Sequence record: OR842557
Length of the DNA stretch: 64,000 nucleotides
Direction: 5' to 3' (one strand)
Source: Escherichia phage 04086
Part shown: in pieces, positions 6,301-39,691 of the stretch
Layout of the letters: each line of letters begins with the position of its first letter
Position numbering within the stretch: the stretch's first letter is position 1
Notes under the pieces: model-generated
Seen by the model: only the letters and a program-made list of their open reading frames with translations
The model's database searches: none
What the model was told of the DNA's origin: nothing
Program-made: the position numbers and the translations under genes

Positions 6301-7260
6301 ATGCTTACAGTAAACAATAATGAATTCATGTGGGAACAGAAATATCGTCCAGGTACTTTATCTGAGTGTATTCTGCCGGCGCATGATAAAGAAACCCTCC
6401 AAGCCATTGTTAATAAGGGCCTAATCCCTAACATTATCCTAGTCTCTGCTTCACCAGGCACAGGTAAAACTACCGTAGCTAAAGCATTGTGTGCTGATAC
6501 AAATTCAGATATGCTGTTTGTTAACGGTTCTGACTGCCGTATTGATTTCGTTCGTAATGAACTTACTCGTTTTGCATCTTCAAAATCTATCGAAGGTAAA
6601 CGTAAGGTAATTGTTATCGACGAATTCGACCGTGCCGGTGTTGCTGAAGCTCAACGTCACCTTCGTTCGTTCTTAGAAGCCTATTCCTCAAACTGTTCTG
6701 TAATTATTACAGCAAACAATATTGATGGTATTATCGGCCCACTTCAATCCCGTTGTCGCGTTATTAAATTTGGTGAAGCCACTCCAGCCGACCAAACATC
6801 CATGATGAAAGAAATGATTCATCGTGCTGTAGCAATCTGTAAAAACGAAAATATCGAAGTCGAAGACCTTAAAGTTATTGCTGCTTTAGTTAAACAAAAC
6901 TTTCCTGACTTCCGTAAAACAGTTAACCAACTGGACCGTTACTCATCCAGTGGTAAAATAGATACAGGCATTTTGAGTATTGTAATGAATACCAATTCGC
7001 CTATTGATGAAGTAGTGGCTGCCCTGAAAGATAAAAACTTTAAAGAACTCCGGGCATTAGCTCCACGTCACGTCAATGACTATTCCAACTTTATTATGTC
7101 ACTGGCTAACGAACTCTATGGTAAATTGCCTGGACCAAGCATTGTTAGAATGTACGAAATTGTCGGTGAAAATAACCAATACCACGGTATTGCGGCTAAC
7201 CCAGAAATTCACATGACTTATCTGTTCATCCAACTTGCTCTGGAGCTCCAATGGCTATAA
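6301..7260 (+). CDS. 44: clamp loader large subunit gp44 (AAA+)
   Basis: Walker A SPGTGKTT, Walker B VIVIDEFD; 319 aa. Confidence 0.92.
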   Translation: MLTVNNNEFMWEQKYRPGTLSECILPAHDKETLQAIVNKGLIPNIILVSASPGTGKTTVAKALCADTNSDMLFVNGSDCRIDFVRNELTRFASSKSIEGKRKVIVIDEFDRAGVAEAQRHLRSFLEAYSSNCSVIITANNIDGIIGPLQSRCRVIKFGEATPADQTSMMKEMIHRAVAICKNENIEVEDLKVIAALVKQNFPDFRKTVNQLDRYSSSGKIDTGILSIVMNTNSPIDEVVAALKDKNFKELRALAPRHVNDYSNFIMSLANELYGKLPGPSIVRMYEIVGENNQYHGIAANPEIHMTYLFIQLALELQWL

Positions 7261-7829: not shown

Positions 7830-8192
7830 ATGATTGAAATTACTCTGAAACAACCTGAAGACTTCTTGAAAGTGAAAGAGACCCTAACTCGTATGGGTAT
7901 CGCTAATAATAAAGAAAAGAAACTATATCAATCCTGCCACATTCTGCAAAAGCAAGGGCTATATTATATCGTCCACTTTAAAGAGATGTTGCGTATGGAT
8001 GGCCGCCAAGTTGATATCGATGGTGAAGACTACCAACGTCGTGATTCGATTGCTCAGCTTCTTAAGGAGTGGGGACTGATTGATATTGTAGATGAATCTG
8101 AACTGTTCGAAATCACCAATAACTTCCGTGTCATTTCCTTTAAACAGAAAAATGACTGGGAATTGTTGTCTAAGTACACTATAGGTAATTAA
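7830..8192 (+). CDS. regA: translational repressor RegA
   Basis: 120 aa, strong similarity to T4 RegA as recalled (MIEITLK...TRMGIANNK). Confidence 0.92.
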   Translation: MIEITLKQPEDFLKVKETLTRMGIANNKEKKLYQSCHILQKQGLYYIVHFKEMLRMDGRQVDIDGEDYQRRDSIAQLLKEWGLIDIVDESELFEITNNFRVISFKQKNDWELLSKYTIGN

Positions 8193-8482: not shown

Positions 8483-11194
8483 ATGCAAGAATTCTATTTG
8501 ACAGTCGAACAAATCGGTGATAATATTCTCGAACGTTACATCGATAAAAATGGTAACGAACGTAGTCGTGAAGTTCCATACAAGCCTACAATGTTTATGC
8601 ATGCTAATCCAGAGCAAGCCGTAAAATACATTGATATCTATGGTAAGGGTTGTGTTAAGAAAGAATTCGACTCTATGCGTGATGCATCCCAATGGATGAA
8701 ACGTATGGATGATATGGGCCTCGAAGCCCTGGGTATGGACGACTATAAATTAGCCTATTTGTCTGATACCTATCGTAAAGAAATCAAATATGATTCTTCT
8801 AAGATTCGTATTGCTAACTTCGACATCGAGGTAACATCTCCTGATGGATTCCCTGAACCAGCTCAGGCTAAACATCCTATCGATGCCATTACCCACTACG
8901 ACTCGATTGACGATAAATTCTATGTATTCGACCTTTTAGTTTCGCCTTATGGTACTGTTGAAGAGTGGTCGATTAAAATCGCTGAGAAACTCCAAGACGA
9001 AGGTGGTGACGAAGTTCCACAGGAAATCATTGACAAAATCGTTTATCTTCCGTTTAATTCTGAAGAAGAAATGATGCTTGAGTATCTGAATTTCTGGCAA
9101 CAGAAAACTCCTGTGATTTTGACTGGATGGAACGTTGAATCATTTGACGTGCCGTACGTTTATAACCGTCTGAAAAATCTGTTCGGTGAGAACACTGCTA
9201 AGCGATTAAGCCCACATCGTAAAACTCGTGTTAAAGTTATCGAGAACATGTACGGTGCTCGTGAAATCATTACTTTGTTCGGCATCTCTGTTCTGGATTA
9301 TATCGACCTCTATAAAAAATTCAGCTTCACCAACCAGCCTTCTTATTCTCTGGATTATGTTTCTGAATATGAATTGAAAGTAGGTAAGTTGAAATATGAT
9401 GGTCCAATCTCCAAGTTACGTGAGACGAACCACCAACGATATATTTCCTATAATATTATCGACGTATATCGTGTAGTGCAGATTGATATGAAACGCCAGT
9501 TCATTCTTCTGAGTTTGGACATGGGTTATTATGCTAAGATGCAGATTCAGTCGGTGTTTAGTCCAATTAAGACTTGGGACGCTATTATCTTTAATAGCCT
9601 TAAAGAGCAAGGCAAGGTAATTCCACAAGCTCGTTCACACGTGGTTCAACCTTATCCTGGTGCTTTCGTTAAGGAACCTATTCCTAACGCTTACAAATAT
9701 GTAATGAGTTTCGACCTTACATCTCTGTACCCGAGTATCATTCGACAAGTGAATATAAGCCCAGAGACCATCGCAGGGACATTCGCTAACGCACCGATAC
9801 ATGAATATATTGCCGGAACAGCTCCGCGTCCTAGCGACGTCTACAGTTGCTCTCCTAACGGCATGATGTACTATAAAGACCGCGATGGTGTGATTCCTAC
9901 AGAAATCACTAAGGTGTTCTTACAACGTAAAGAACATAAAGGTTATATGCTTGCAGCTCAACGTAATGGTGAGTTAATTAAAGAAGCATTAGAAAATCCT
10001 AATCTCTCGGCTGATAGTCCACTGGATATCGATTATCGTTTTGACTTCTCTGACGAAATCAAAGCCAAGATTAAAACGCTGTCAGCACCTTCTTTAAGAG
10101 AAATGTTGTTCAGAGCTGAACGTACCGAAGTTGCAGGTATGACTGCTCAGATTAACCGTAAGTTGCTTATCAACTCCCTTTATGGTGCACTTGGTAACGT
10201 ATGGTTCCGTTATTACGACCTCAGGAACGCAACTGCAATCACACTGTTTGGTCAAATGGCCCTCCAATGGATTGAACGTAAGGTTAACGAATATCTGAAT
10301 AGCGTGTGTAAGACTGAAAATCAGAAGTTCGTGCTCTATGGTGATACTGACTCCATTTATGTTAAGGCGGATGCAATCATCAATAAAGTAGGCGAAGACA
10401 AATTCCGTGATACTAACCACTGGGTTGACTTCTTAGATAAATTTGCACGTGAACGTATGGAACCGGCTATTGATGCAGGCTTCCGTGAGATGTGCGAGTA
10501 CATGAACAACAAACAGCACTTGATGTTCATGGACCGAGAAGCTATCGCAGGTCCTCCACTTGGTTCTAAAGGTCTTGGTGGATTCTGGACAGGTAAGAAA
10601 CGTTATGCACTGAACGTTTGGGACATGGAAGGTACTCGTTATGCCGAACCGCACTTGAAAATCATGGGCCTCGAAACTCAGAAATCAAGTACACCTAAAG
10701 CAGTTCAGAAAGCTCTGAAGGAATGTATCCGTCGTATGCTTCAGGAAGGTGAGGCATCTTTGCAAGAATATTTCAAACAGTTTAATAAGGAATTTAACGA
10801 ACTCAACTATGTAAGCATTGCAGCAGTATCCAGTGCTAACAACATCGAGAAATATAATGAAGGTGGATTCCCGGGTTCTAAATGTCCATACCACATCAAA
10901 GGTTGCTTAGCTTACATGCGTGCTTCTGCAGGTGATTTGACTATGCCTCGTATCGTTGATGGTGAAAAGGTATATGTACTGCCACTTAAAGAAGGCAACC
11001 CATTCGGTGAAGCATGTATGGCATGGCCGTCAGGTATTGAACTCCCGATTCAGATTCGTGACCAAGTCCTCCGTTGGATGGACTACAACGTACTGTTCCA
11101 AAAGACCTTTATCAAACCTCTGACCGGTTTTACCGAGTCTGCTAAAATCGACTACGAGAAAAAAGCAACATTATTTGACATGTTCGACTTTTAA
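8483..11194 (+). CDS. 43: DNA polymerase gp43 (family B)
   Basis: exo I FDIE, DLTSLYPS, KLLINSLYG, YGDTDS; 903 aa; start at MQEFYL with AAAGGA RBS (ORF-track 5' extension rejected). Confidence 0.95.
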   Translation: MQEFYLTVEQIGDNILERYIDKNGNERSREVPYKPTMFMHANPEQAVKYIDIYGKGCVKKEFDSMRDASQWMKRMDDMGLEALGMDDYKLAYLSDTYRKEIKYDSSKIRIANFDIEVTSPDGFPEPAQAKHPIDAITHYDSIDDKFYVFDLLVSPYGTVEEWSIKIAEKLQDEGGDEVPQEIIDKIVYLPFNSEEEMMLEYLNFWQQKTPVILTGWNVESFDVPYVYNRLKNLFGENTAKRLSPHRKTRVKVIENMYGAREIITLFGISVLDYIDLYKKFSFTNQPSYSLDYVSEYELKVGKLKYDGPISKLRETNHQRYISYNIIDVYRVVQIDMKRQFILLSLDMGYYAKMQIQSVFSPIKTWDAIIFNSLKEQGKVIPQARSHVVQPYPGAFVKEPIPNAYKYVMSFDLTSLYPSIIRQVNISPETIAGTFANAPIHEYIAGTAPRPSDVYSCSPNGMMYYKDRDGVIPTEITKVFLQRKEHKGYMLAAQRNGELIKEALENPNLSADSPLDIDYRFDFSDEIKAKIKTLSAPSLREMLFRAERTEVAGMTAQINRKLLINSLYGALGNVWFRYYDLRNATAITLFGQMALQWIERKVNEYLNSVCKTENQKFVLYGDTDSIYVKADAIINKVGEDKFRDTNHWVDFLDKFARERMEPAIDAGFREMCEYMNNKQHLMFMDREAIAGPPLGSKGLGGFWTGKKRYALNVWDMEGTRYAEPHLKIMGLETQKSSTPKAVQKALKECIRRMLQEGEASLQEYFKQFNKEFNELNYVSIAAVSSANNIEKYNEGGFPGSKCPYHIKGCLAYMRASAGDLTMPRIVDGEKVYVLPLKEGNPFGEACMAWPSGIELPIQIRDQVLRWMDYNVLFQKTFIKPLTGFTESAKIDYEKKATLFDMFDF

Positions 11195-11196
11195 GT

Positions 11197-11239
11197 GTTT
11201 ACATACCACAAGGAACGTGGTAGTATCCTTCCTATCAAC
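11197..11239 (+). promoter_or_regulatory. early promoter (GTTTAC -35, TAGTAT -10, downstream CCTATCAAC box)
   Basis: sigma70-like hexamers; member of repeated promoter family. Confidence 0.6.
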
Positions 11240-11256
11240 TACATGAGGAAATTACA

Positions 11257-11493
11257 ATGGAAGCTTTAATCGTTAGTGCTGGTGTTTTAGGATTCGGTTC
11301 TCTGGTTATTATGTTCATCGGTTACTTTTTACCATGGATTCTGGCTCTTCTGCGAGGCACTCGTAGTAATGTAGGAATTTTCTTCCTTAATCTCCTGTTA
11401 GGCTGGACGATGATTGGTTGGGTAGTGGCTTTAATCTGGGCTATCGTCGCTGAACGTAAATCAAACGCACAAATCATTATTGTTAAACAATGA
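11257..11493 (+). CDS. imm: probable superinfection immunity membrane protein Imm
   Basis: 78-aa two-TM protein with LLGWT..GW..AL.WA motif; adjacent to gene 43 as in T4. Confidence 0.55.
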   Translation: MEALIVSAGVLGFGSLVIMFIGYFLPWILALLRGTRSNVGIFFLNLLLGWTMIGWVVALIWAIVAERKSNAQIIIVKQ

Positions 11494-11627
11494 AAATAAT
11501 TGTTTTATTTCTTATAATGGCTGCCTTTACCGTTTATTGGGCAGTGGCAATTCCACCAATGATTCCGACACTAATCATCGGATGGATTATTCTTATAGCA
11601 CAAATTAAGTATAACTGTTTTAATTGA
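11490..11627 (+). CDS. small hydrophobic membrane peptide (45 aa)
   Basis: ATGA overlap with imm stop; entirely hydrophobic; below ORF-track cutoff. Confidence 0.35.
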   Translation: MKIIVLFLIMAAFTVYWAVAIPPMIPTLIIGWIILIAQIKYNCFN

Positions 11628-11634
11628 GGATATT

Positions 11635-12135
11635 ATGAAAAAGTTAATTATCGCAATGAGTATGCTCCTATCAGGTTGCGCGGTCCAATATGGTGATGCA
11701 GTTTCGGCTGATGAAGTTGGTAAAGCTCGTATCGCAGCTGAACAGAAACAATTCGATGGCGAAATGAAATTCCGTGCCGGTTCTGGACTTGTGTATACCC
11801 GAGCTAATAATCAATGCGGTAATAACTGTGCAAAATATGCTCAACGAGAAATTGAATTCCAACGTGAACAAGAGTCCAAGCGTGAAGCGGTACTAGCCAA
11901 ACACCAGGCAGAAATGAAGCGCCAAGATGATTTGTACAAAAAGCAGAAACTGTATGCGATGTGCGTAAACCATATCAATCTACAGATTTCCATCCATGAG
12001 GCTCGTTATTACGAAATGCTCGAAACTGAGAGCTTCGGTAAAGCTCGTGATTATAAGAAACAAATCGATAAGCTCAAGACCAAAGTACCAGCGGCAATAG
12101 AACAGTGTATTGAAATCGGTAAAGATAAGATTTAA
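11635..12135 (+). CDS. predicted lipoprotein (166 aa)
   Basis: signal peptide with lipobox LLSGC; charged coiled-coil-like mature region. Confidence 0.6.
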   Translation: MKKLIIAMSMLLSGCAVQYGDAVSADEVGKARIAAEQKQFDGEMKFRAGSGLVYTRANNQCGNNCAKYAQREIEFQREQESKREAVLAKHQAEMKRQDDLYKKQKLYAMCVNHINLQISIHEARYYEMLETESFGKARDYKKQIDKLKTKVPAAIEQCIEIGKDKI

Positions 12136-12195
12136 GCAATACCAATTTATTAAAAATAGTGTATAATGTACCTACATTCACTTGAGGAACAGATA

Positions 12196-13869
12196 ATGAA
12201 AAAGGTTGTTATTTTAGGCGCGGGTCTTGGCTCACGGTTGTATCCAATTACCAACGAAATCCCGAAGGTACTGGTTAACTACAAACAACATACCGTATTA
12301 AAACATTTGTACGATTTGTATAGTAACCAATCGGATGAAATTATTCTGGTTATTCACAGCAAATTTAACGACCTCGTTAAAGGCTATATTAAATCCATTA
12401 ACATGATTAATAGTGATAAGCCTAAATTCACTATTCGTAACGTAGACGTGGCCAATGGTTCAGCTCATGCTATCGATTGCATTGCTGAAGATATCATTGG
12501 GCACAATGTCCTGTTTAACTGGTGTGACATCATTCCTGAAGGTCATAAGGTTGAGTGGGATAACGACTATTGCTATACTTACGGGACTGACTGTCGTTTT
12601 ACATTTGAAGAACCGTACTTGCGTGAAATTGGTACTGGCGGTGGTGTGGTTGGTTTGTATCAGGTGGCTAATTGGACAGGTTTTAACGGTCTGTATTATG
12701 GCGAAGACCTGGCCGACAACCTGGATTCAATGGTCCATTTGACTGAACGTAAGCTGGACTTTGTGGTTGATGTCGGTGACAAATTGAAACTGGCCAAGGC
12801 CCATGAAGATTCTGAAATTAACCGTGAATTTAATAAATTAGAGTTCACTGAGAATCTGGCTATTAAAGTACCAACTAACGAATTGGGTAAAGAAATCCAA
12901 TCTAAAGAAATCAATTGGTATAATTCTATTGATTCTGAATTCGTTCCTAGCATTGTAGACTTTGCTCCAGGCGAATTCATTAAAATGGAACGTATCTTTG
13001 GTCGTACCATGGCAGATGCCTACCGGTTTATGTCTAAAGAAACCAAAGTCCTCATGGTTTATAAGGTCATTAGTGCATTGCGTTCATTCGGCGGAACTAT
13101 CGATAACCCATCCGATGAGCAATGGTATTCTGATGTTAAGAAAGAAGTATTGGACAAGGTCCTTATTCGTAATGCTTCTATTGCCGGATTGATTGAAGGC
13201 TTTGCTCCACAGGGCATTACCCATGTTAACGACTTCAAGGTAGGCGACCCTGAAAAGCTTCTCCGTCACGCACTAGAAATTCTGTCTGAACATAAAGAAC
13301 CGTACCAACTTATTCATGGTGACCCGCACTACAGTAATATTATGCTGTCGGACGAAGGTGATATTAAAATCATCGACCCGCGTGGTTATTTTGGTAATAG
13401 TTCTAAAGGCCCTGCGATTTATGACGAAGCTAAGGTGCTTTATTCTATCGATGGTTATGACAAATTTAACTCTGACCCTCTATGGGGTGGTTTAACTCGT
13501 AACGGGACCCGTGTATTCGTTGATATTGAAAAGGTTATGCCTTTAGATGATATTCCAATGTGTACATTTAAGCACAAGCTCTGGATTGCTGTTATCTGGA
13601 TGGCATTGGCAGGTTACTTTAAAAATAACCCTCTGAAAGCTCTGGGTGCTTATTACAACGGTCTATATCAACTGAGTGTGCTGCTTAAGCGGCATCCTCG
13701 TAAGCGTAAGCTTATTACAGGTGAATTTGTCGATGAAGTTCGTGACCCTATTACGGCTCAAATTATCACTCGTTGTCCTGATAAGTGGGTTTTGCTTGAC
13801 CAGGAAACTGGTGTAAAATATAAACCTACAGGTTCTACTGAACTCCACAAACAATGGAAGAAAATTTAA
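12196..13869 (+). CDS. bifunctional nucleotidyltransferase / APH-like (anomeric sugar or alcohol) kinase
   Basis: N-terminus VVILGAGLGSRLYPITNEIPKVLV (GxGxRL..PK nucleotidyltransferase signature); C-terminus HGDPHYSNIM + IIDPRGYFG (Brenner motif of APH/choline-kinase fold); start at MKKVVIL with GAGGAA RBS (track start 12166 sits inside TATAAT). Confidence 0.75.
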   Translation: MKKVVILGAGLGSRLYPITNEIPKVLVNYKQHTVLKHLYDLYSNQSDEIILVIHSKFNDLVKGYIKSINMINSDKPKFTIRNVDVANGSAHAIDCIAEDIIGHNVLFNWCDIIPEGHKVEWDNDYCYTYGTDCRFTFEEPYLREIGTGGGVVGLYQVANWTGFNGLYYGEDLADNLDSMVHLTERKLDFVVDVGDKLKLAKAHEDSEINREFNKLEFTENLAIKVPTNELGKEIQSKEINWYNSIDSEFVPSIVDFAPGEFIKMERIFGRTMADAYRFMSKETKVLMVYKVISALRSFGGTIDNPSDEQWYSDVKKEVLDKVLIRNASIAGLIEGFAPQGITHVNDFKVGDPEKLLRHALEILSEHKEPYQLIHGDPHYSNIMLSDEGDIKIIDPRGYFGNSSKGPAIYDEAKVLYSIDGYDKFNSDPLWGGLTRNGTRVFVDIEKVMPLDDIPMCTFKHKLWIAVIWMALAGYFKNNPLKALGAYYNGLYQLSVLLKRHPRKRKLITGEFVDEVRDPITAQIITRCPDKWVLLDQETGVKYKPTGSTELHKQWKKI

Positions 13870-14228
13870 TGCATCTGTGTTTTGATATCGATAATACCAT
13901 TACTCACTGGCAAGATGACCGTGATTACGAAAACTTTAAACCGGACACCGAAATGGTGTCCATGATTAATAAGCTTTATGACGAAGGTCACGAGATTACA
14001 TTGTTCACTGCTCGTGGTATGACTTCATGTGGCCCTGGTCGAATCTTGGTTGAAGTAGTTCCTGCATTGGTTAAGAACCTTGAAAAGATCGGATTGAAAT
14101 ATCATAATCTGCTTACACATAAGCCGAGTTATACTTTTATCATCGATGACCGAGCAATCCGTCCTGACCATTTTAAAGAAATGGTTCGTGAAGGAACTCT
14201 TGAAACCTATAAGGCATATCATCCGTGA
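13869..14228 (+). CDS. HAD-superfamily phosphatase (small)
   Basis: motif I FDIDNTIT near N-terminus, LFTAR, IIDDR; start overlaps upstream stop (TAATG). Confidence 0.7.
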   Translation: MHLCFDIDNTITHWQDDRDYENFKPDTEMVSMINKLYDEGHEITLFTARGMTSCGPGRILVEVVPALVKNLEKIGLKYHNLLTHKPSYTFIIDDRAIRPDHFKEMVREGTLETYKAYHP

Positions 14229-14761
14229 ACCCAAAAATCATTGTTATCGACGGCCCGGATAATTCCGGGAAGTCTACTTTAATTGAATCACTTTTATCTG
14301 ATAAGAAATATCGTCTTATTGATTTCCCTAAAAAGATTAATGGCAAATGCATTTCATTAGGGACTGATAATGACAAGGCTTTAGTCGAGACGTTGTATAA
14401 GTTTTTAGACCCTAATTTCGTTTACATCCTTGACCGTGGTTATCCAAGTAATATAGTTTACTCGGGATTCCTTCGTGGTGAAATGGACCCTTATGTAGAA
14501 CTAGCAGATTGGATTGATTTCAAAAAAGAATTCAATATCATTGAGATTATTTTAACCCGTAATCCACTGGATAAAGACTTCGAAGACGACCTTATTAAAT
14601 TAACCAAAGATGAGTTCAACTTAACTATCCAAAAATATGAAGACTGTTTTAAAAATGTTTTTAAAGTTTTAAACCATGACGGATATAATAACTTGCTTAA
14701 CGTCGATATGGTAGAATTAAAACGTCTGAATGAATATATTGAAAATAAGGTGAATAAATGA
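14225..14761 (+). CDS. thymidylate-kinase-like P-loop (d)NMP kinase
   Basis: P-loop IDGPDNSGKST and DRGYPSNIVY (TMK DRY-like); GTG start overlapping upstream stop. Confidence 0.65.
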   Translation: MNPKIIVIDGPDNSGKSTLIESLLSDKKYRLIDFPKKINGKCISLGTDNDKALVETLYKFLDPNFVYILDRGYPSNIVYSGFLRGEMDPYVELADWIDFKKEFNIIEIILTRNPLDKDFEDDLIKLTKDEFNLTIQKYEDCFKNVFKVLNHDGYNNLLNVDMVELKRLNEYIENKVNK

Positions 14762-15456
14762 AACACATTACCGCTGTTAGTTTTGAAAACGCGTTTAAGC
14801 AAATGAACGAAGAAATCCTGGAAGCTCCACAGTTTGCAGTTGATTCTCGTATCGGCCGTTGTTATGAAATCGGTTCTGCTTCGGTAGAAGTACTGGATGC
14901 AAGCACCTATAAATTCACCGACCCTCGTATTAATCGTATCAACTATGATTATGCCGAATCTTTCTGGAAGTTTATGATTTCCGGTGGTACTGATGCCGCC
15001 GAAGCATTTAAGGAATACCCTAATGTTGCTAAGTTCATTGATAAGCCGAAAAGTGACGTATTGCCTGCAAACTTCAACACTTTCTATGGACCTCGAATTG
15101 TGGCCCAACTCCCAGCCCTACTTAAAGAGCTTAAAGAAAAGCCTAACTCGAGACGAGTTGTGTTCCAAATTCTCCAAGAACAAGACCAAGCCCTCCTTGA
15201 TTCTGACGAATCCTTAGAATATCCGTGTACCGATTCGGTAACATATTATATTCGTGATGGACGTCTGTATGCACACACTCATATGCGTTCACAGAACTGT
15301 GCTATCGTTATGCAGCTGGATTTCTATCTGCAGGGTAAACTGATGGCCTTTATTGCTGAACAGTGTGGTGTTGGTCTGGGTACGTATTCCCATACTATGG
15401 TTAGTGCACATGTATTTGAACGTGATTTTAACTACGTTCGAGGATTCCTGAAATGA
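14758..15456 (+). CDS. 42: thymidylate-synthase-fold pyrimidine hydroxymethylase (gene 42-like, divergent)
   Basis: PNSRR, catalytic Cys in EYPCTD, HMRSQN...QLD with Asp at the cytosine-specifying position; syntenic with T4 gene 42. Confidence 0.6.
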   Translation: MKHITAVSFENAFKQMNEEILEAPQFAVDSRIGRCYEIGSASVEVLDASTYKFTDPRINRINYDYAESFWKFMISGGTDAAEAFKEYPNVAKFIDKPKSDVLPANFNTFYGPRIVAQLPALLKELKEKPNSRRVVFQILQEQDQALLDSDESLEYPCTDSVTYYIRDGRLYAHTHMRSQNCAIVMQLDFYLQGKLMAFIAEQCGVGLGTYSHTMVSAHVFERDFNYVRGFLK

Positions 15457-16346
15457 GTTTGTTTATCGTTCCTATTTTCAGTATGCGTAGTTACGAAACA
15501 GGTGAATATGCCGTCCTTAAGGACGGCAATTTTCAACTCCATTTAAACCGTGCTTGCCCAGGTGATTATCTGGCTTATCCTAGAAATTCGAGCGATATCA
15601 AAGAATGTATTGAATTATTTCCTGAACTGAATTTCGTGCCGCTTTGGTATAAAGAAAATGCTTATGAGACCCGTAAACATTTTTGGTCCGAAAATGAGTT
15701 TGTCGTTGATTCGTTAATCGAATACTATGACTGCTCGGGATTAGTAACCGATATCACTGGTTATGATGGTGCTCAGACTGTACAATTCAACTTTAACATT
15801 ACAATGGACCCTGAAGTTCCTCGTTATTACATCGATGAGTTTATTGATACCGACGTGTCTTCAGTTGAACGTTCGATTTATACTACAGTCTTGAACCAAT
15901 GTCAGAAAGACGTCCTGGTGTCACGAGGTGTGTCCTCTGATAAGATTTTTGTAGACCAAAAGGTAATTAATCCGGCAGTAATTGAGCGTTACTCTGAAGG
16001 TCTAGCGCCTATTAAAATTGATGGTATTTTCCACCCATTCCGTATTTCGGATAAGTGTTATCAATTCGAAAGAGTTGTAGACCAAGCTGCGGCTGAAGGT
16101 GCTCGTCTTTATATCACCGACCCGAATGATTCGTTTAAACGTGAAGACTATCGTCCTGATGTAGAGATTATTAAATTCAAACCGAGTAAGGTTGAATATT
16201 ATCAGATTCTGAAATCAAGACCCCATATCATTTATCATGAGAACCCTGGTTTAGTATTCCATCCTGGTCTAGCTGAATTCATTTATTTCGGTGCCCATAT
16301 CCATTCCGAGCACGAAATGCCAAGTTATGAGGACGTGGTCCTTTAA
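15453..16346 (+). CDS. unknown protein in beta-gt syntenic slot (candidate DNA-modifying transferase)
   Basis: 297-aa ORF between TS-like gene and uvsX; no similarity to T4 beta-gt that I can recognise; function is inference from position. Confidence 0.55.
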   Translation: MSLFIVPIFSMRSYETGEYAVLKDGNFQLHLNRACPGDYLAYPRNSSDIKECIELFPELNFVPLWYKENAYETRKHFWSENEFVVDSLIEYYDCSGLVTDITGYDGAQTVQFNFNITMDPEVPRYYIDEFIDTDVSSVERSIYTTVLNQCQKDVLVSRGVSSDKIFVDQKVINPAVIERYSEGLAPIKIDGIFHPFRISDKCYQFERVVDQAAAEGARLYITDPNDSFKREDYRPDVEIIKFKPSKVEYYQILKSRPHIIYHENPGLVFHPGLAEFIYFGAHIHSEHEMPSYEDVVL

Positions 16347-34872: not shown

Positions 34873-36690
34873 ATGATTAAGAATGAAATTAAAGTACTGT
34901 CCGACATTGAACATATCAAAAAACGTAGTGGGATGTATATTGGCTCCAGTGCTAATGAAGCTCACGGTCGATTCCTGTTTGGTAATTTTACACAGGTAAA
35001 CTATGTTCCTGGACTAGTTAAATTAATTGACGAAATCATTGATAACTCTGTCGATGAAGCTATTCGTACCAATTTTAAATTCGCAAATAAAATTGATGTT
35101 CAAATTAAGAATAACCAGGTTTCAGTTTCTGATAATGGTCGTGGTATTCCACAAGCAATGGTCACCGACCAAAATGGTGAACAGATTCCAGGTCCTGTAG
35201 CAGCATGGACTATTCCAAAGGCGGGTGGTAACTTTGGAGATGACGCTGAGCGTAAGACAGGCGGCATGAATGGTGTCGGTAGTAGTTTAACTAATATCTT
35301 CTCCGTTTTGTTCACAGGCATCACCTCTGATGGCGAGAATGAAATTACAGTTAACTGTTCCAATGGAATGGAAAACAAAGGTTGGTCTACTAAGAAATCT
35401 AAAGGTAAGGGTACTTCGGTTATATTCACTCCAGACTTTAATCATTTTGAAGAGAACTCTCTATCACAAATTTATCTGGATATTACTCTAGATCGTCTTA
35501 AAACTCTAGCTGTAATTTATCCTAGTATCCAATTTACTTTTAATGGTAAAAAAGTAGATGGTAACTTTAAAAAGTATGCTAATCAATTTGGTAAAGATGT
35601 AGTAATTCAAGAAACCGATAATGTCTCAATGGCATTTACCACATCTCCGGATGGATTCCGTCACCTAACTTATGTGAACAATATTCATACTAAGAATGGT
35701 GGTCATCATGTTGAATGTGTGTTTGATGATATCTGCGAACATCTCTTGCCAGGCATCAAGAAGAAATATAAAGGCATCGAAGTAAGTAAGGCCCGAGTTA
35801 AAGAATGCTTAACTATGCTGATGTTCATTCGCGATATGAGTAATATGCGTTTTGATTCCCAGACTAAAGAACGTTTGACGTCACCATTCGGTGAAATTCG
35901 TAACCATATTCAAATTGATGCAAAGAAAATCTCACAGTATATTCTTAAAGACGAAGGGTTGATTATGCCTATCGTTGAAGCTGCTTTAGCACGTAAATTA
36001 GCAGCTGAAAAGGCTGCCGAAACTAAAGCCGCTAAGAAAGCTTCTAAAGCCAAGGTCCATAAGCATATTAAAGCTAACTTATACGGCAAAGATGCTGATA
36101 CAACCCTGTTCCTAACCGAAGGTGATTCCGCTATGGGTCCTTTCATTGAAGTCCGTAATAAAGACCTTCAAGGTGGTTATCCGTTACGTGGTAAGGTTAT
36201 GAATACCTGGGGAATGACAGCAACAGATATCATGAAGAACAAGGAACTATTTGATATCTGTGCAATCACTGGACTGGTTATTGGTGAACCTGCAGAGAAA
36301 ACCAACTATCGTAATATCGCTATCATGACCGATGCTGATGTGGATGGTACTGGTTCGATTTATCCATCATTGCTAGCCTTCTTTAGTCAATGGCCTGAAT
36401 TGTTCGAACAAGGTCGAGTGCGGTTCTGTAAAACTCCGGTAATTATTGCTCAGGTGGGTAAAGAACAGGAATGGTTCTATGATGTCCCTAGTTATACCAA
36501 AGCTAAGGACTCTCTACCAAAACATTCTATTCGTTATATCAAAGGACTAGGTTCTCTTGAGAAGGCCGAATACCGTCGAATGATTCAAGACCCTAAATTT
36601 GATGTGGTTCAATTGCCTGAAGATTGGAAAGAACAGTTCGAAATGCTCCTCGGAAACGACCCTCAACTCCGTAAGGCCTGGATGTCGTAA
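34873..36690 (+). CDS. 39: DNA topoisomerase II large subunit gp39 (GyrB-like), unsplit
   Basis: GHKL ATPase N-terminus, TOPRIM region; 605 aa, i.e. gp39 plus gp60-equivalent in one ORF. Confidence 0.93.
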   Translation: MIKNEIKVLSDIEHIKKRSGMYIGSSANEAHGRFLFGNFTQVNYVPGLVKLIDEIIDNSVDEAIRTNFKFANKIDVQIKNNQVSVSDNGRGIPQAMVTDQNGEQIPGPVAAWTIPKAGGNFGDDAERKTGGMNGVGSSLTNIFSVLFTGITSDGENEITVNCSNGMENKGWSTKKSKGKGTSVIFTPDFNHFEENSLSQIYLDITLDRLKTLAVIYPSIQFTFNGKKVDGNFKKYANQFGKDVVIQETDNVSMAFTTSPDGFRHLTYVNNIHTKNGGHHVECVFDDICEHLLPGIKKKYKGIEVSKARVKECLTMLMFIRDMSNMRFDSQTKERLTSPFGEIRNHIQIDAKKISQYILKDEGLIMPIVEAALARKLAAEKAAETKAAKKASKAKVHKHIKANLYGKDADTTLFLTEGDSAMGPFIEVRNKDLQGGYPLRGKVMNTWGMTATDIMKNKELFDICAITGLVIGEPAEKTNYRNIAIMTDADVDGTGSIYPSLLAFFSQWPELFEQGRVRFCKTPVIIAQVGKEQEWFYDVPSYTKAKDSLPKHSIRYIKGLGSLEKAEYRRMIQDPKFDVVQLPEDWKEQFEMLLGNDPQLRKAWMS

Positions 36691-36733
36691 TAAATATGTA
36701 TGGTACATGAGTGCCATACAATTAGGAGACTTT

Positions 36734-36886
36734 ATGAGAAAGTACTGGATAACGCTAGCCACCGGTGAATTTGGATATCTCTGGGCTGAGAAGAGACCTT
36801 TGTTCGCAGAGTACGTGACCATTATGGTAGAAACCTGGGAAGGCGAATTTTATCAAGTTCGAGGACAAGTCTACAAAATTGAATAA
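36734..36886 (+). CDS. hypothetical small protein (50 aa)
   Basis: AGGAG RBS 6 nt upstream; alternative start 36707. Confidence 0.4.
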   Translation: MRKYWITLATGEFGYLWAEKRPLFAEYVTIMVETWEGEFYQVRGQVYKIE

Positions 36887-36890
36887 TTAA

Positions 36891-36909
36891 GGGCCGCAAG
36901 GCCCTTTTC
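36891..36909 (+). terminator. rho-independent terminator
   Basis: GGGCC-GCAA-GGCCC + TTTTC. Confidence 0.55.
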
Positions 36910-36959
36910 GGGGTTTACAACATAACAAAACTGTGATAGGATTATCTAGAGGTGAGAAT

Positions 36960-37283
36960 ATGATTATGCAAGATAACAGTATAGTGAACACTGATAACCT
37001 GGCTTTATCTTTTATGGAAACGGCTATTCGTAACTGTAAAGATGAAGGAGTAGTGACTACAAGCGGTAAGGGACTTGAATACCTTAAGGCTGTAAAATCT
37101 ATTGCCTTAAAGATTAAAGATAACCAGGCGCTCTCTCCTGTTGTCCAGGAAAAGGTTTTAGAGATAATGTATCGCCACAGAGAGCACAAAAGTACAATGG
37201 GTTCTATGAGAAGAATTCTGGCTGAACTTGGTTCTACCAGAGAATATGTTCAACATGAGGTAGTTAAAAATGACAAACTTTAA
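36960..37283 (+). CDS. hypothetical protein
   Basis: GGTGAG RBS; track GTG start 36933 rejected. Confidence 0.45.
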   Translation: MIMQDNSIVNTDNLALSFMETAIRNCKDEGVVTTSGKGLEYLKAVKSIALKIKDNQALSPVVQEKVLEIMYRHREHKSTMGSMRRILAELGSTREYVQHEVVKNDKL

Positions 37284-37473
37284 AGTGAATATTGATTTGT
37301 TCGATAAAGCCGTCCATAAAGAATTCCGGCTAATCCAGCGATTTTTTGATATCAATGCGGCTGAGGATTTTAAAGAACGCTTTAAAGAAATCAGATATAA
37401 AATACTCAACGACATCGCTACTAAGGACGAGCTCCTTGAAGTGGCAGACCTTTTTAAACGTAACCTGAATTGA
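37270..37473 (+). CDS. hypothetical protein (rIIA.1-like position)
   Basis: ORF immediately upstream of rIIA. Confidence 0.45.
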   Translation: MTNFKVNIDLFDKAVHKEFRLIQRFFDINAAEDFKERFKEIRYKILNDIATKDELLEVADLFKRNLN

Positions 37474-37480
37474 GAAAAAT

Positions 37481-39691
37481 ATGATTATCGAAACCGAAAA
37501 AGAACAAATCATTGGTAATGGTGCTAAGTCCACAGGCTTTACTATCCAGGCATCGCCTAAGGTCTTTAAAATTCTGTCGTCAGACCTTTATAGTAATAAG
37601 GTACGTGCTGTAGTACGTGAACTAATTACCAACATGATTGATGCTCATATTCTGAATGGTAATAAAGAACGTTGGAAAGTACAGGTTCCTGGTAAACTGG
37701 ACCCTCGTTTCGTGTGCCGTGACTTCGGGCCGGGTATGAGCGATTTCCAAATTCGCGGTGATGAAAATGAAACAGGTTTGTACAACTCTTATTTCGCATC
37801 ATCCAAAACGGCTTCTAATGATTTCATCGGCGGCTTTGGCCTTGGTTCAAAATCTCCGTTCAGTTATACCGAAACGTTTAATATCACCTCATGGCATAAC
37901 GGTGAAGTTCGTGGTTATGTAGCTTATATGGACGGCGATGGCCCGCAGATTAAACCCACTTTCGTCGAACCTATGCAGCCAGGCGATAAAACAGGTATCG
38001 AAATCACGGTTCCTGTTGATGAAGAAGATTTCCGTAAGTTTGAAACTGAAGTTCGTTATATCATGCGGCCTTTCATTGGCCTTGGTGATGTCGATGGTGT
38101 TGAAGTTGATTATTTCCCTGAATTTGACGATTACTATCCTGTAACCACTACAAATTATGGCAACTTCGAACGTTCAGGTCTTTATGCTGTTTATGGTGGT
38201 ATTGTCTATCCATTAGATTCAGCTTATAATAAAGGCACATGGATGCGTACTCGCCATGATGTAGTTTATATTAAGTTCCCTATGGGTTCACTGGATATTG
38301 CTCCGTCTCGTGAAGTGCTGTCTCTTGATAAACGTACGATGGAAAATATTGCAACCCGTATCGAAGCACTGGATGCCTTGGTCTTTAAAAACGATACACA
38401 GGAATGGGTTGAATCTGATAATCCACGCCATGTTTATCGTGACCTTTCTAACCTTGGTTACAGTGCTCGTGACTATCTTACCAAAAAAGGTGGAACTAGC
38501 CTGTTTACTACAGAAAAATTGACCTTTGAAAAACTGTATCAAAAATATACACTTCAAAACGACCTTCTTAATTTAGGCGTTGTTTACGAAATCGTTTCAG
38601 ACCCACGTTTGAAACGAATTAAGCCGAGTGGTAATACTTCTTCGGTGGCAGGACTTAGTAGTTTATTAGGCATTAATAAGAAAGAAATCCATGTTGTTTA
38701 TGATGATGAAAAGGGTCGTGTGCCACTAGTTCGAGGACTTTGGGCCTTGGCAATGGACAACAGTGCTTCGGCTAAGAAAATTGTTAAAGAGAACAATATT
38801 CCTAAATACGGAACCGACCTTATTTTTGTCGACCCAAATTCAATGCTGCAAATGCAACAACTTGAAAAGGTTAAAGAACTTTTTAAAGGTGACACCATTC
38901 ATTTTTATAAAGTCTCAGAGCTGAATAAAATTGTTAAGCCATGGATTCCGGTTACTGTGCGTTCATCAGAACCTCGTCCTAAAACACCGAGTGCTTATCG
39001 TTGGTTCATTAAAGACGGGCGTTGGCAAACAGAGACCATGTATTTGACCGCCGCAGAAGCAGAAGAAATTACAGGTTATGTGCTGTTTGGCAGTCGTTCT
39101 GATATCATGGGAATGGACGAAGCTTATGGTATCTTTGACATCAATACCACTACCATGTGTCGTATGGCTAATTTGATTGGTGTAACAGAATTCCATATCA
39201 TTCGCCCTCAGATTGCCAAAAAGATTAAAAAGTTAGGTCAATGTGAATGCTTGATGGAAGCTACATTAGAAGCCTATGCCGAAGCCCTAGACGCGGTAGA
39301 TGTTGATGACTACCTTGGTAGTAATACCCGTGCTCGGTATTACCTTGAAATCATTGCCAAGTTCCCTGAGCTCGGTTTCATGACTAAGTATTTTAGTGAT
39401 AAGCCTGTGACTGAAGCATATACTCGTCTGAGTAATTTCTATGATATATTCCGTTATATGAATTTCCATGGTTATATCACTGATGACAAGCTTTCCGTTA
39501 TCAAGAAAATTTGTAACACCACGTTTAATACGTTAACCAATAATGCTTCAAGCAACAATGATAAAATGACTTTACAGTTTGAATCTGATTACCATTTAGT
39601 TTCGGACTACATGTATCGTCGTGGAACATCCATTACCGAGGCTTCTGTAGCTCAAATCGTTAAATTCATGAAAGCCGTGGAAGCGGCTTAA
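37481..39691 (+). CDS. rIIA: rIIA membrane-associated protein (GHKL ATPase-like N-terminus)
   Basis: 736 aa; N-terminus MIIETEKEQIIGNG...VRELITNMIDAH matches T4 rIIA as recalled. Confidence 0.93.
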   Translation: MIIETEKEQIIGNGAKSTGFTIQASPKVFKILSSDLYSNKVRAVVRELITNMIDAHILNGNKERWKVQVPGKLDPRFVCRDFGPGMSDFQIRGDENETGLYNSYFASSKTASNDFIGGFGLGSKSPFSYTETFNITSWHNGEVRGYVAYMDGDGPQIKPTFVEPMQPGDKTGIEITVPVDEEDFRKFETEVRYIMRPFIGLGDVDGVEVDYFPEFDDYYPVTTTNYGNFERSGLYAVYGGIVYPLDSAYNKGTWMRTRHDVVYIKFPMGSLDIAPSREVLSLDKRTMENIATRIEALDALVFKNDTQEWVESDNPRHVYRDLSNLGYSARDYLTKKGGTSLFTTEKLTFEKLYQKYTLQNDLLNLGVVYEIVSDPRLKRIKPSGNTSSVAGLSSLLGINKKEIHVVYDDEKGRVPLVRGLWALAMDNSASAKKIVKENNIPKYGTDLIFVDPNSMLQMQQLEKVKELFKGDTIHFYKVSELNKIVKPWIPVTVRSSEPRPKTPSAYRWFIKDGRWQTETMYLTAAEAEEITGYVLFGSRSDIMGMDEAYGIFDINTTTMCRMANLIGVTEFHIIRPQIAKKIKKLGQCECLMEATLEAYAEALDAVDVDDYLGSNTRARYYLEIIAKFPELGFMTKYFSDKPVTEAYTRLSNFYDIFRYMNFHGYITDDKLSVIKKICNTTFNTLTNNASSNNDKMTLQFESDYHLVSDYMYRRGTSITEASVAQIVKFMKAVEAA

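Follow-up and report, generated by a model that had tools for sequence, protein, structure and literature searches.

A fused nucleotidyltransferase–kinase of Escherichia phage 04086 is very probably the Dhakavirus orthologue of AfhE in a reduced DNA arabinosylation cluster

We analyzed a window of 64,000 nucleotides from Escherichia phage 04086 (OR842557), a Dhakavirus of the JS10/IME08 group, in which the open reading frame at 12196–13869 on the plus strand encodes a protein of 557 aa with the amino terminus MKKVVILGAG. The minus strand holds nothing but short unsupported frames of ≤104 aa. The ATG at 12196 is preceded at a distance of 7 nt by a Shine-Dalgarno sequence, GAGGA (12184–12188, plus strand), which is invariant in comparison with IME341, RB69 and LC53, and the alignment revealed an MKK(A/V)VILG amino terminus common to all homologues. 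The start given in the open reading frame track, an in-frame upstream ATG at 12166, overlaps the hexamer TATAAT (12162–12167, plus strand), exactly as an earlier sequence-only reading of this DNA had pointed out, and is spurious. The same reading had expected automated annotation to adopt a wrong start, an expectation not borne out by the records, as RefSeq NC_055742 and the KIT01 protein P0001 (557 aa) both begin at the ATG equivalent to 12196.

The hexamer at 12162–12167 resembles a −10 element. We dropped it as stand-alone evidence for a sigma-70 promoter, because no −35 partner was found for it and TATAAT occurs in the window at chance level (79 copies vs 75 ± 8.5 in shuffled sequences). 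A cross-genus alignment showed the block ATAGTGTAyAAT to be conserved at the equivalent place in RB69 and LC53. In these two phages a canonical MotA box, AATGCTTTA, precedes it at a distance of 12 nt, whereas the window reads ACCAATTTA at the MotA-box position, corresponding to a degenerate box in the Dhakavirus. Judged from the sequence, the hexamer probably acts as the −10 element of a promoter serving the gene cluster that starts here.

The protein combines a nucleotidyltransferase and an APH-fold kinase in one polypeptide, a combination absent from the T4 core; on both points the HMM searches, a confident structural model and the fold searches upheld what had been read from the letters. 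The domain matches greatly exceed chance: the Pfam families NTP_transferase and APH matched with 34.3 bits (cut-off 21.2) and 25.6 bits (cut-off 23.2), respectively, and PHROG 4098 matched over the full length (E 6e-269). The AlphaFold model reached a pLDDT of 92.3 and a pTM of 0.88. The amino-terminal sugar-1-phosphate nucleotidyltransferase domain spans aa 1 to ~205 (12196–12810), and the amino-terminal assignment stood in kind although not in extent, since about 240 aa had been allotted to a domain that ends near aa 205 in the model. It adopts the RmlA/MurU/LicC fold with the GxGxR...PK signature and the Mg-binding Asp residues intact, comprising GAGLGSRL (aa 8–15; 12217–12240), PKVLV (aa 23–27; 12262–12276), D111 (12526–12528) and VDVGD (aa 191–195; 12766–12780). 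The APH/choline-kinase-fold domain follows at aa ~206–500 (12811–13695), with K224 (12865–12867) and E238 as key positions, the HxDxxxxN catalytic loop present as HGDPHYSN (aa 374–381; 13315–13338) and the downstream metal-binding Asp within IIDPRG (aa 392–397; 13369–13386). All of these elements are encoded on the plus strand, and the motifs quoted in the sequence-only reading, present here as GAGLGSRL, PKVLV, HGDPHYSN and IIDPRG, were found on invariant catalytic positions.

Forty-one homologues were aligned, one of them a 97% proxy for HY126 AfhE, and none of the catalytic residues of the two domains varies among them. Many basic and aromatic residues outside the catalytic centers are likewise invariant in this set, among them the basic R134, R210, K321, R325, R396, K413 and K481, a pattern consistent with a conserved phosphosugar substrate. 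The polypeptide ends in a carboxy-terminal extension of ~55 aa (aa ~501–557; 13696–13866, plus strand) with the pattern T(K/R)xPxKWxLxDxETxxxY...W, which is conserved solely in the T4-like clade and missing from relatives of 30–33% identity as well as from the four-domain fusions described below. It was modelled as short β strands with pLDDT values of 67–85.

Sequence and fold searches against the PDB placed both domains in known fold classes. By sequence, the PDB entry that best matched the amino-terminal domain was HddC (6jq8/5xhw). The kinase domain alone gave a weak single-sequence match (E 0.46), aligned on the right motifs, and its top fold matches were choline/ethanolamine kinases, APH(4), glucosamine kinase, maltokinase and FN3K at 10–17% identity. 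With NahK and AmgK, suggested for comparison, the kinase domain has the fold class in common, but a specific similarity was not seen. MurU (4y7t), LicC (1jyk) and LicA (4r77) ranked among the best structural matches at 10–16% identity. A solved AfhE structure was not detectable in the PDB by either sequence or fold.

Homologues align end to end. The protein of HY126, a phage of the Mosigvirus type that has this cluster too, shares 43% identity (E 2e-144; aa 1–557 vs 1–562), RB69 ORF053c+052c (gp52:53) 42%, the LC53 protein 42.5% and Acinetobacter phage homologues ~44%. The protein of the related Klebsiella F48-type phages is 80% identical. The gene is single-copy, with 368 places in 368 phage records (367 near full length) and one place in the window. 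Within Dhakavirus, nucleotide divergence amounts to ~4–5% vs 0.4–0.9% at the amino-acid level, which indicates purifying selection. A distant homologue, P0073, lies on a contig that resembles a jumbo phage rather than a bacterium and so offers no independent context from bacteria.

The gene heads a block of five genes located between gp43 and uvsX, the same position as in RB69, LC53 and HY126, and preceded by imm and a predicted lipoprotein of 166 aa. The five genes, all on the plus strand, are translationally coupled through stop/start overlaps, in order TAATG, GTGA, ATGA and ATGA. The second gene (13869–14228; MHLCFDIDNT...), whose start overlaps the stop of the fusion gene by TAATG, encodes an AfhF-like HAD phosphatase of 119 aa. 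It is 63% identical to the protein encoded after the AfhE homologue in HY126 and matches the NCBIfam capsule-biosynthesis phosphatase family TIGR01689, HAD-IIIA and, weakly, Pfam Hydrolase_3. RefSeq uses this start as well, but its label, 'phosphoheptose isomerase', is a misnomer inherited from PHROG 1238. The third gene (14225–14761; GTGA overlap) encodes a P-loop thymidylate-kinase-like nucleotide kinase of 178 aa (PHROG 761), 37% identical to its HY126 counterpart, with a GC content of 32.4% vs 39–42% in its neighbours; here the gene precedes the ThyA homologue, whereas in RB69, HY126 and LC53 it comes after the transferase.

The fourth gene (14758–15456; ATGA overlap; Pfam Thymidylat_synt) encodes a thymidylate-synthase homologue of 232 aa, predicted to be a 5-hydroxy-dCMP synthase, with 78% identity to RB69 gp48 and an identical active-site motif, HMRSQNCA..MQLD. 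In E. coli ThyA numbering, the protein presumably has N at 169, the diagnostic D169N, together with D at 177. RB69 gp48 itself is an experimentally verified 5hodCMP synthase (PMC13326640). The fifth gene (15453–16346; ATGA overlap; PHROG 3891) encodes an arabinosyltransferase-like protein of 297 aa, the orthologue of RB69 gp46:47. It is 66% identical to its HY126 counterpart and 62.6% identical to the LC53 protein, and it yielded no Pfam or NCBIfam match. RB69 gp46:47 has been proposed as the first DNA arabinosyltransferase (Lee et al., PMC13326640).

Several genes that accompany this pathway in other phages were not found in the window, namely RB69 gp55 (the arabinose-5-phosphate isomerase, for which tblastn gave no match), gp50 (U32) and gp3 (second transferase) and the LC53 chorismate mutase. 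In RB69, HY126, LC53 and DLP3 the isomerase gene adjoins the AfhE-type gene. Across the phage collection, matches to the fusion exceeded matches to the isomerase by 39 in Escherichia (176 − 137), 5 in Enterobacteria (8 − 3) and 1 in Shigella (15 − 14) records, a shortfall that equals exactly the Dhakavirus record counts, and by this count arithmetic the isomerase appears to be absent from all Dhakavirus records. Judged by gene content, the cluster is reduced in Dhakaviruses: the isomerase, the pair of U32 and chorismate mutase, and the second arabinosyltransferase are all missing. Lacking a phage isomerase, the cluster therefore differs from those of RB69, HY126, LC53 and DLP3 in its substrate supply.

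Taken together, we consider it highly probable that the protein is the Dhakavirus orthologue of AfhE and belongs to the UDP-D-arabinofuranose pathway for 5-hydroxycytosine arabinosylation of phage DNA. What the present data show directly are the two folds, the invariant catalytic residues, the orthology over the full length, and the synteny and coupling of the five genes. The substrates, the order of the steps and the specificity for UDP are adopted from the literature on homologues, where domain analyses for RB69 and DLP3 are also given (PMC13326640). HY126 AfhE, which we infer to be XAN60479.1, is described there, citing He et al. 2026, as a bifunctional D-arabinose-5-phosphate 1-kinase/UDP-D-arabinose pyrophosphorylase. 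According to the same account of the HY126 work in vitro, the kinase converts arabinose 5-phosphate to arabinose 1,5-bisphosphate, the AfhF phosphatase acts next and the pyrophosphorylase finally yields UDP-arabinofuranose (PMC13326640). This modifies the sequence-only reading, which had phosphorylation followed by nucleotidylation, by a phosphatase step in between as outlined for the characterized homologue (PMC13326640). As this order puts the kinase first, its substrate would be a sugar 5-phosphate and not a free sugar or alcohol.

For the Dhakavirus, the same chemistry would begin with D-arabinose 5-phosphate drawn from the host pool, the phage being without an isomerase of its own. E. coli makes arabinose 5-phosphate via KdsD/GutQ for Kdo synthesis. 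Both enzymes have been discussed by Thomas et al. (PMC6024577). The carboxy-terminal kinase (K224, E238, D376, N381, D394) would transfer the γ-phosphate of ATP to the anomeric C1-OH, yielding arabinose 1,5-bisphosphate, whose 5-phosphate would then be removed by the HAD phosphatase from the translationally coupled next gene (13869–14228). The amino-terminal domain (G10, R14, K24, D111, D192) would subsequently convert arabinofuranose 1-phosphate and UTP to UDP-Araf and pyrophosphate. In parallel, the ThyA homologue would provide 5-hydroxy-dCMP, which, once phosphorylated, the phage polymerase would build into DNA; there, the 297-aa transferase would attach arabinose taken from UDP-Araf to the 5-hydroxycytosine. 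Dhakavirus DNA is probably mono-arabinosylated, with a probable requirement for host arabinose 5-phosphate.

A different order of the steps, in which the HAD phosphatase first releases free arabinose, an anomeric kinase of the NahK/AmgK kind phosphorylates it and arabinose 1-phosphate is then uridylylated, agrees with Table 1 of PMC13326640, where the entries for RB69 and DLP3 read 'dephosphorylates Araf5p to Ara' and 'phosphorylates Ara to Araf1p'. The closest structural relatives of the kinase domain also use non-phosphorylated substrates, for example choline, aminoglycosides and glucosamine. We nevertheless rate this order as improbable, as it is contradicted by the text of that paper on the HY126 in vitro work, which places the kinase first, and as the best structural relatives of the HAD protein are heptose-1,7-bisphosphate phosphatases (as reported in PMC13326640); among the invariant residues of the kinase domain, moreover, several basic ones fit a phosphorylated substrate. 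Among the orders considered it is the one closest to the picture drawn by the sequence-only reading. A LicA-LicC- or AmgK-MurU-like fusion that activates a substrate unrelated to DNA, such as phosphocholine, MurNAc or a capsule sugar, for remodelling of the host envelope would account for the presence of LicC, MurU and LicA among the best fold matches and for the capsule-biosynthesis family as the best NCBIfam match of the HAD neighbour. These matches are fold-level, at 12–20% identity, whereas the gene is coupled into a nucleotide/DNA-modification operon between gp43 and uvsX and is orthologous to the enzyme from a pathway shown to arabinosylate DNA, leaving envelope remodelling hardly credible.

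Counting against the AfhE assignment itself, the fusion protein is only 43% identical to that of HY126, the characterized enzyme, vs 63–78% for the neighbouring genes. Along with the isomerase, missing from the window and, by the counts, from all Dhakavirus records, this would fit an enzyme that makes a different product, accepting another pentose phosphate (e.g. ribose 5-phosphate) or another nucleotide, so that the sugar on the DNA would be unlike that of RB69. The searchable literature yielded no paper with a measured DNA modification or nucleoside analysis of any Dhakavirus, and no enzymology on this protein or any Dhakavirus orthologue. Such a switch is nonetheless improbable in our assessment: the transferase, which would have to accept the nucleotide sugar, and the phosphatase are 66% and 63% identical to those of HY126, respectively, a great many residues outside the catalytic centers are unchanged throughout the family, and E. 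coli produces arabinose 5-phosphate at all times for Kdo synthesis. Lee et al. furthermore place the Dhakaviruses with the arabinosylating genera. In a broader form the argument extends to the stripped-down pathway of both Dhakaviruses and F48-type phages, where the specificity of the enzyme may have changed, the DNA pentose may be other than arabinofuranose, or the dependence on KdsD/GutQ may be strict; we consider this unlikely, but if true, strict reliance on KdsD/GutQ would represent an exploitable host dependency.

The fusion enzyme is already known and ordinary for this T4-like group, at variance with the novelty implied by the sequence-only reading. The fusion was recognised in 2018, when IME08 gp43 was named as a full-length homologue (Thomas et al., PMC6024577) and served to show that RB69 ORF053c and ORF052c form one gene, a role in UDP-arabinose generation being merely speculated at the time (PMC6024577). 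Its homologies to RmlA and to aminoglycoside phosphotransferases were tabulated in 2021 (PMC8056088), and the biochemistry of HY126 AfhE was reported in 2026 (He et al., Nat Chem Biol, as cited in PMC13326640). Lee et al. (2026, PMC13326640) list the Dhakaviruses among the genera with the syntenic cluster and predict from synteny that arabinosylated 5-hydroxy-dC takes the place of dC in their virion DNA. By analogy with these systems, the enzyme would supply the activated sugar for arabinosyl-5-hydroxycytosine. This DNA hypermodification protects T4-like phages against restriction enzymes as well as CRISPR and is itself a target of type IV restriction systems. As Dhakaviruses are candidates for phage therapy, their probable DNA modification and host dependence are useful to know. 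The present analysis would allow 'hypothetical protein' to be replaced by bifunctional arabinose-5-phosphate 1-kinase/UDP-arabinofuranose pyrophosphorylase (predicted), 'phosphoheptose isomerase' by HAD phosphatase, 'thymidylate synthase' by 5-hydroxy-dCMP synthase (predicted) and 'RNA polymerase binding protein' by putative DNA arabinosyltransferase. The remaining interest is small, lies in the reduced cluster and opens no new question.

Comparison with known systems places the protein closest to IME08 gp43, which is essentially the same gene (94.9% nucleotide identity over the full length). HY126 AfhE, RB69 gp52:53 (ORF53_52c) and Acinetobacter phage DLP3 gp82, with lengths of 561–562 aa compared to 557 aa here, are collinear with it, consisting of the nucleotidyltransferase, the APH-fold kinase and the short carboxy-terminal extension with the same invariant catalytic residues. 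Their genes likewise lie between gp43 and uvsX and are followed by the HAD phosphatase gene with the same 1-nt TAATG-type overlap. They differ by the 43% sequence identity and by their upstream neighbour, an arabinose-5-phosphate isomerase in place of imm and the lipoprotein gene.

The pathway logic is identical to that of ADP- and GDP-heptose synthesis in Gram-negative bacteria. There, a SIS isomerase (GmhA) provides the sugar ω-phosphate, an anomeric kinase (HldE or HddA) generates the 1,ω-bisphosphate, a HAD phosphatase (GmhB) takes off the distal phosphate, and a nucleotidyltransferase (HldE or HddC) activates the resulting sugar 1-phosphate. HldE also fuses kinase and nucleotidyltransferase, however with a PfkB/ribokinase-fold kinase and a cytidylyltransferase-fold adenylyltransferase in contrast to the APH and RmlA types found here. 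Membership of the HldE family was ruled out by these folds, as Pfam and NCBIfam searches of the 557-aa protein gave no match to PfkB or CTP_transf_like. The sugar here is moreover a pentose and the acceptor DNA, so that the likeness is one of logic, with homology only to HddC. AmgK-MurU of Pseudomonas MurNAc recycling and LicA-LicC of the pneumococcal phosphocholine pathway unite the same two folds in one pathway, but as separate proteins in which the kinase product passes directly to the transferase and the substrates are not phosphosugars.

The Butyrivibrio proteins carry a SIS domain carboxy-terminal to the region homologous to ORF53_52c (Thomas et al. 2018, PMC6024577). The metagenomic proteins P0087 and P0068 resemble the window protein with 31–32% identity over its aa 4–498 (the P0087 alignment ends at aa 498) and the same motifs, but differ in having phosphatase and isomerase fused in front and no carboxy-terminal extension. 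These single polypeptides of 922–946 aa with the order HAD-SIS-nucleotidyltransferase-kinase therefore tie the four activities into one pathway.

The 1674-nt gene of the fusion protein (plus strand, 12196..13869; 557 aa) belongs, by taxonomy lookup, to a phage of the T4-like genus Dhakavirus and shares 94–97% nucleotide identity with its counterparts in KIT01, IME341, QL01, WG01, IME08, Bp7 and JS10. The mechanical ORF list starts it at 12166, an in-frame ATG located, as the sequence-only reading had stated, inside a −10-like TATAAT hexamer (plus strand, 12162–12167). The automated mis-start predicted in the same reading did not materialize, with both RefSeq and GenBank using 12196. This ATG follows a GAGGA Shine–Dalgarno sequence 7 nt upstream and opens the amino terminus MKK(A/V)VILG common to every homologue in alignment A1 (41 fusion-protein homologues). 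A transcript beginning just downstream of the −10 hexamer would exclude the 12166 ATG, in agreement with the 12196 start. Minus-strand ORFs within the gene were all ≤104 aa, none of them with support.

A single TATAAT is not significant by itself in this window (79 observed versus 75 ± 8.5 expected), and a search upstream of it yielded no −35 element. Cross-genus alignment showed that RB69 and LC53 share the block ATAGTGTAyAAT with the window at the equivalent site. In both phages the TACAAT in front of the fusion gene is preceded, at a distance of 12 nt, by a canonical MotA box of T4 middle promoters, AATGCTTTA (RB69, L002 ~7930–7970; LC53, L003 ~6930–6970). The window (12130–12170) carries ACCAATTTA at the MotA-box position, with the −10 block kept and improved to TATAAT. 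Given this alteration, timing or regulation of the cluster in Dhakaviruses may differ from that in RB69 and LC53.

All quoted motifs were found as described (GAGLGSRL, aa 8–15; PKVLV, 23–27; HGDPHYSN, 374–381; IIDPRG, 392–397), and the assignment of a nucleotidyltransferase joined to an APH-fold kinase proved right, based on Pfam matches to NTP_transferase (aa 3–100, 34.3 bits, cut-off 21.2) and APH (aa 346–417, 25.6 bits, cut-off 23.2) and on invariant catalytic residues. Across A1, the residues G10, R14, P23, K24, D111, D192, G194 and D195 of the nucleotidyltransferase and K224, E238, H374, G375, D376, N381 and D394 of the kinase are invariant; as one member of A1 matches the HY126 enzyme at 97% identity, this holds for the characterized enzyme too. 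Misplacement of the motifs relative to the catalytic positions had been named as grounds for rejection. These grounds fall away: in sequence alignments GxGxRL/PK coincides with its equivalents in HddC and LicC, and HGD..N/IDP with those in a fructosamine-3-kinase. NCBIfam matches, to many sugar-1-phosphate nucleotidyltransferases, all stayed below threshold, and PHROG 4098 ("unknown function") matched end to end (E 6e-269). The amino-terminal domain stands as proposed, but it ends near aa 205 rather than extending over ~240 aa, and a third element has to be added, a carboxy-terminal extension of ~55 aa (plus strand, 13696–13866; aa ~501–557) with the pattern T(K/R)xPxKWxLxDxETxxxY…W. It was modeled as short β-strands with lower confidence (pLDDT 67–85); all T4-like phage homologues have such an extension, whereas the 30–33% identical relatives and the four-domain fusions lack it.

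The fusion gene is the first in a block of five between DNA polymerase gp43/imm and uvsX, connected by overlapping stop and start codons (TAATG 13867–13871, GTGA 14225–14228, ATGA 14758–14761 and ATGA 15453–15456). It is followed, all on the plus strand, by genes for a 119-aa HAD phosphatase (13869–14228; 63% identity to its HY126 counterpart), a P-loop thymidylate-kinase-like protein (14225–14761), a thymidylate-synthase (ThyA) homologue (14758–15456; 78% identity to RB69 gp48) and a 297-aa putative DNA arabinosyltransferase (15453–16346; 66% identity to its HY126 counterpart), for which a Pfam and NCBIfam search gave no match. In the phage collection, HY126 (PP658200.1) contains the RB69-type cluster. 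The ThyA homologue shares the motif HMRSQNCA..MQLD with RB69 gp48 and, numbered against E. coli ThyA, would have Asn at position 169 and Asp at 177. D169N is the signature from which Lee et al. predicted 5-hydroxy-dCMP synthases (PMC13326640).

At 32.4%, the GC content of the P-loop kinase gene is unusually low (39–42% in neighboring genes). Its product and the HY126 counterpart share only 37% identity (63–78% for adjacent genes), and the gene precedes the ThyA homologue here but lies downstream of the transferase in RB69, HY126 and LC53, suggesting that it was rearranged or replaced. At an annotated Dhakavirus locus (L001), RefSeq gives several products misleading names: "phosphoheptose isomerase", taken over from PHROG 1238, for the HAD phosphatase, "RNA polymerase binding protein" for the putative DNA arabinosyltransferase, and "thymidylate synthase" for the predicted 5-hydroxy-dCMP synthase.

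Published work already describes the fusion, including its Dhakavirus orthologue. Thomas et al. (2018, PMC6024577) showed RB69 ORF053c and ORF052c to be one gene split through sequencing error. They pointed to the Dhakavirus protein IME08 gp43, homologous over the full length, and suggested that the protein serves UDP-arabinose synthesis; a 2021 survey (PMC8056088) listed the RmlA and aminoglycoside-phosphotransferase homologies of the family. Lee et al. (2026, PMC13326640) demonstrated arabinosylated 5-hydroxycytosine in RB69 and DLP3 DNA, established the ThyA homologue as a flavin-dependent 5-hydroxy-dCMP synthase, counted Dhakaviruses among the genera with a syntenic cluster, and analyzed RB69 gp52:53 and DLP3 gp82 as nucleotidyltransferase–kinase fusions, equating them with AfhE of HY126. 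Their structural hits (4y7t, 1jyk, APH) are those of the window protein. AfhE, in the account of He et al. (Nat Chem Biol 2026) relayed in PMC13326640, is a dual D-arabinose-5-phosphate kinase/UDP-D-arabinose pyrophosphorylase, partnered by the Mg-dependent phosphatase AfhF.

The present analysis supplies the folds, the catalytic residues, the orthology and the operon structure. Published work on homologues is the source for the substrates, the order of steps and the nucleotide, and we infer their transfer to the window protein. The carboxy-terminal kinase would act on D-arabinose 5-phosphate, adding a phosphate at C1, the coupled HAD phosphatase would take off the 5-phosphate, the amino-terminal domain would condense arabinofuranose 1-phosphate with UTP, and the 297-aa transferase would put the arabinose on 5-hydroxycytosine in DNA. 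We hold this account as a whole to be very probable. The reverse order, with the phosphatase acting first and the kinase then on the free sugar, still stands in Table 1 of Lee et al. (PMC13326640); the kinase activity relayed for AfhE is on the 5-phosphate, and we give this order little credence. Altered sugar or nucleotide specificity of the Dhakavirus enzyme appears similarly improbable. The enzyme is 43% identical to the HY126 protein over the full length (E 2e-144) and has the same invariant residues. An envelope-directed, LicA/LicC-like role could draw on fold matches to LicC, MurU and LicA; the gene shares its block with the ThyA homologue and the putative DNA arabinosyltransferase, and such a role is highly unlikely.

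By tblastn, the fusion protein occurs in 368 records of the phage collection, once per genome and near full length. Identity is 80% in Klebsiella F48-type phages, 72% in Proteus phages, 42–46% in Mosigvirus and many Acinetobacter, Serratia, Enterobacter and Yersinia phages, 42% for RB69 ORF053c+ORF052c (matched in two pieces), and 27–28% in phage PAU and Vibrio jumbo phages. Within Dhakavirus the gene diverges by 4–5% in nucleotides versus only 0.4–0.9% in amino acids, indicating strong purifying selection. Metagenomic proteins of 922–946 aa are single chains with a HAD, a SIS, a nucleotidyltransferase and a kinase domain (31–32% identity over window-protein aa 4–498), further supporting a four-step logic of isomerase, kinase, phosphatase and nucleotidyltransferase. 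On a contig of 315 kb (GCA_013565635.1; L005 7297–9665), a SIS-domain gene is immediately followed by the gene of a homologue with 32% identity (P0073). Because it is full of small hypothetical genes and also encodes a UvrD-type helicase, gyrase/topoisomerase IV and a Fapy-glycosylase, this contig probably represents a jumbo phage. The pathway seems to reach well beyond Straboviridae.

The window contains no arabinose-5-phosphate isomerase. In RB69, HY126 and LC53 its gene lies between gp43 and the fusion gene; here this position (11194–12196) holds imm (11257–11493), a 45-aa membrane ORF and a 166-aa predicted lipoprotein (11635–12135; PHROG 1754). Across the whole phage collection the isomerase occurs in 276 records versus 368 for the fusion protein, and the per-organism shortfall equals exactly the number of Dhakavirus records, indicating by count arithmetic that all of them lack it. 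Without its own isomerase, the phage probably draws on host arabinose 5-phosphate from KdsD/GutQ. Likewise, no RB69 gp3-type second arabinosyltransferase was found anywhere in the window. RB69 gp3 is located in the gp39–rIIA interval; the corresponding 36690–37481, between genes assigned by size and order as gp39 topoisomerase (34873–36690) and rIIA (37481–39691), has only a 116-aa ORF. Mono- rather than di-arabinosylation is therefore predicted, a single arabinose probably being added.

Mosigvirus and Winklervirus clusters also contain a gene for a Peptidase_U32-family protein with a small gene behind it (RB69 gp50, L002 10120–11286; LC53, L003 9681–10847 and 10847–11188), the small one encoding a type II chorismate mutase in LC53. 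These assignments were checked in RB69 and LC53; both genes are absent from the Dhakavirus window. The U32 members TrhP, RlhA and UbiU/UbiV are oxygen-independent hydroxylases using prephenate, the product of chorismate mutase, so the pair could provide an anaerobic route to 5-hydroxycytosine in addition to the ThyA homologue, which depends on O2 and flavin. For RB69 gp50, Lee et al. gave only the label "sugar or heterocycle reductase" (PMC13326640), and we found no such link in the accessible literature.

The main output is a better annotation of the five genes in the block. The fusion itself is confirmed but of low interest, and the Dhakavirus differences are modest variations on a system already described. 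The ADP-heptose and GDP-heptose pathways (GmhA, HldE/HddA, GmhB, HldE/HddC) follow the same logic as the phage pathway. The window protein would work in an HldE-like manner but, having different folds, stands outside the HldE family, and the best PDB sequence match of its amino-terminal domain is HddC of the heptose pathways.
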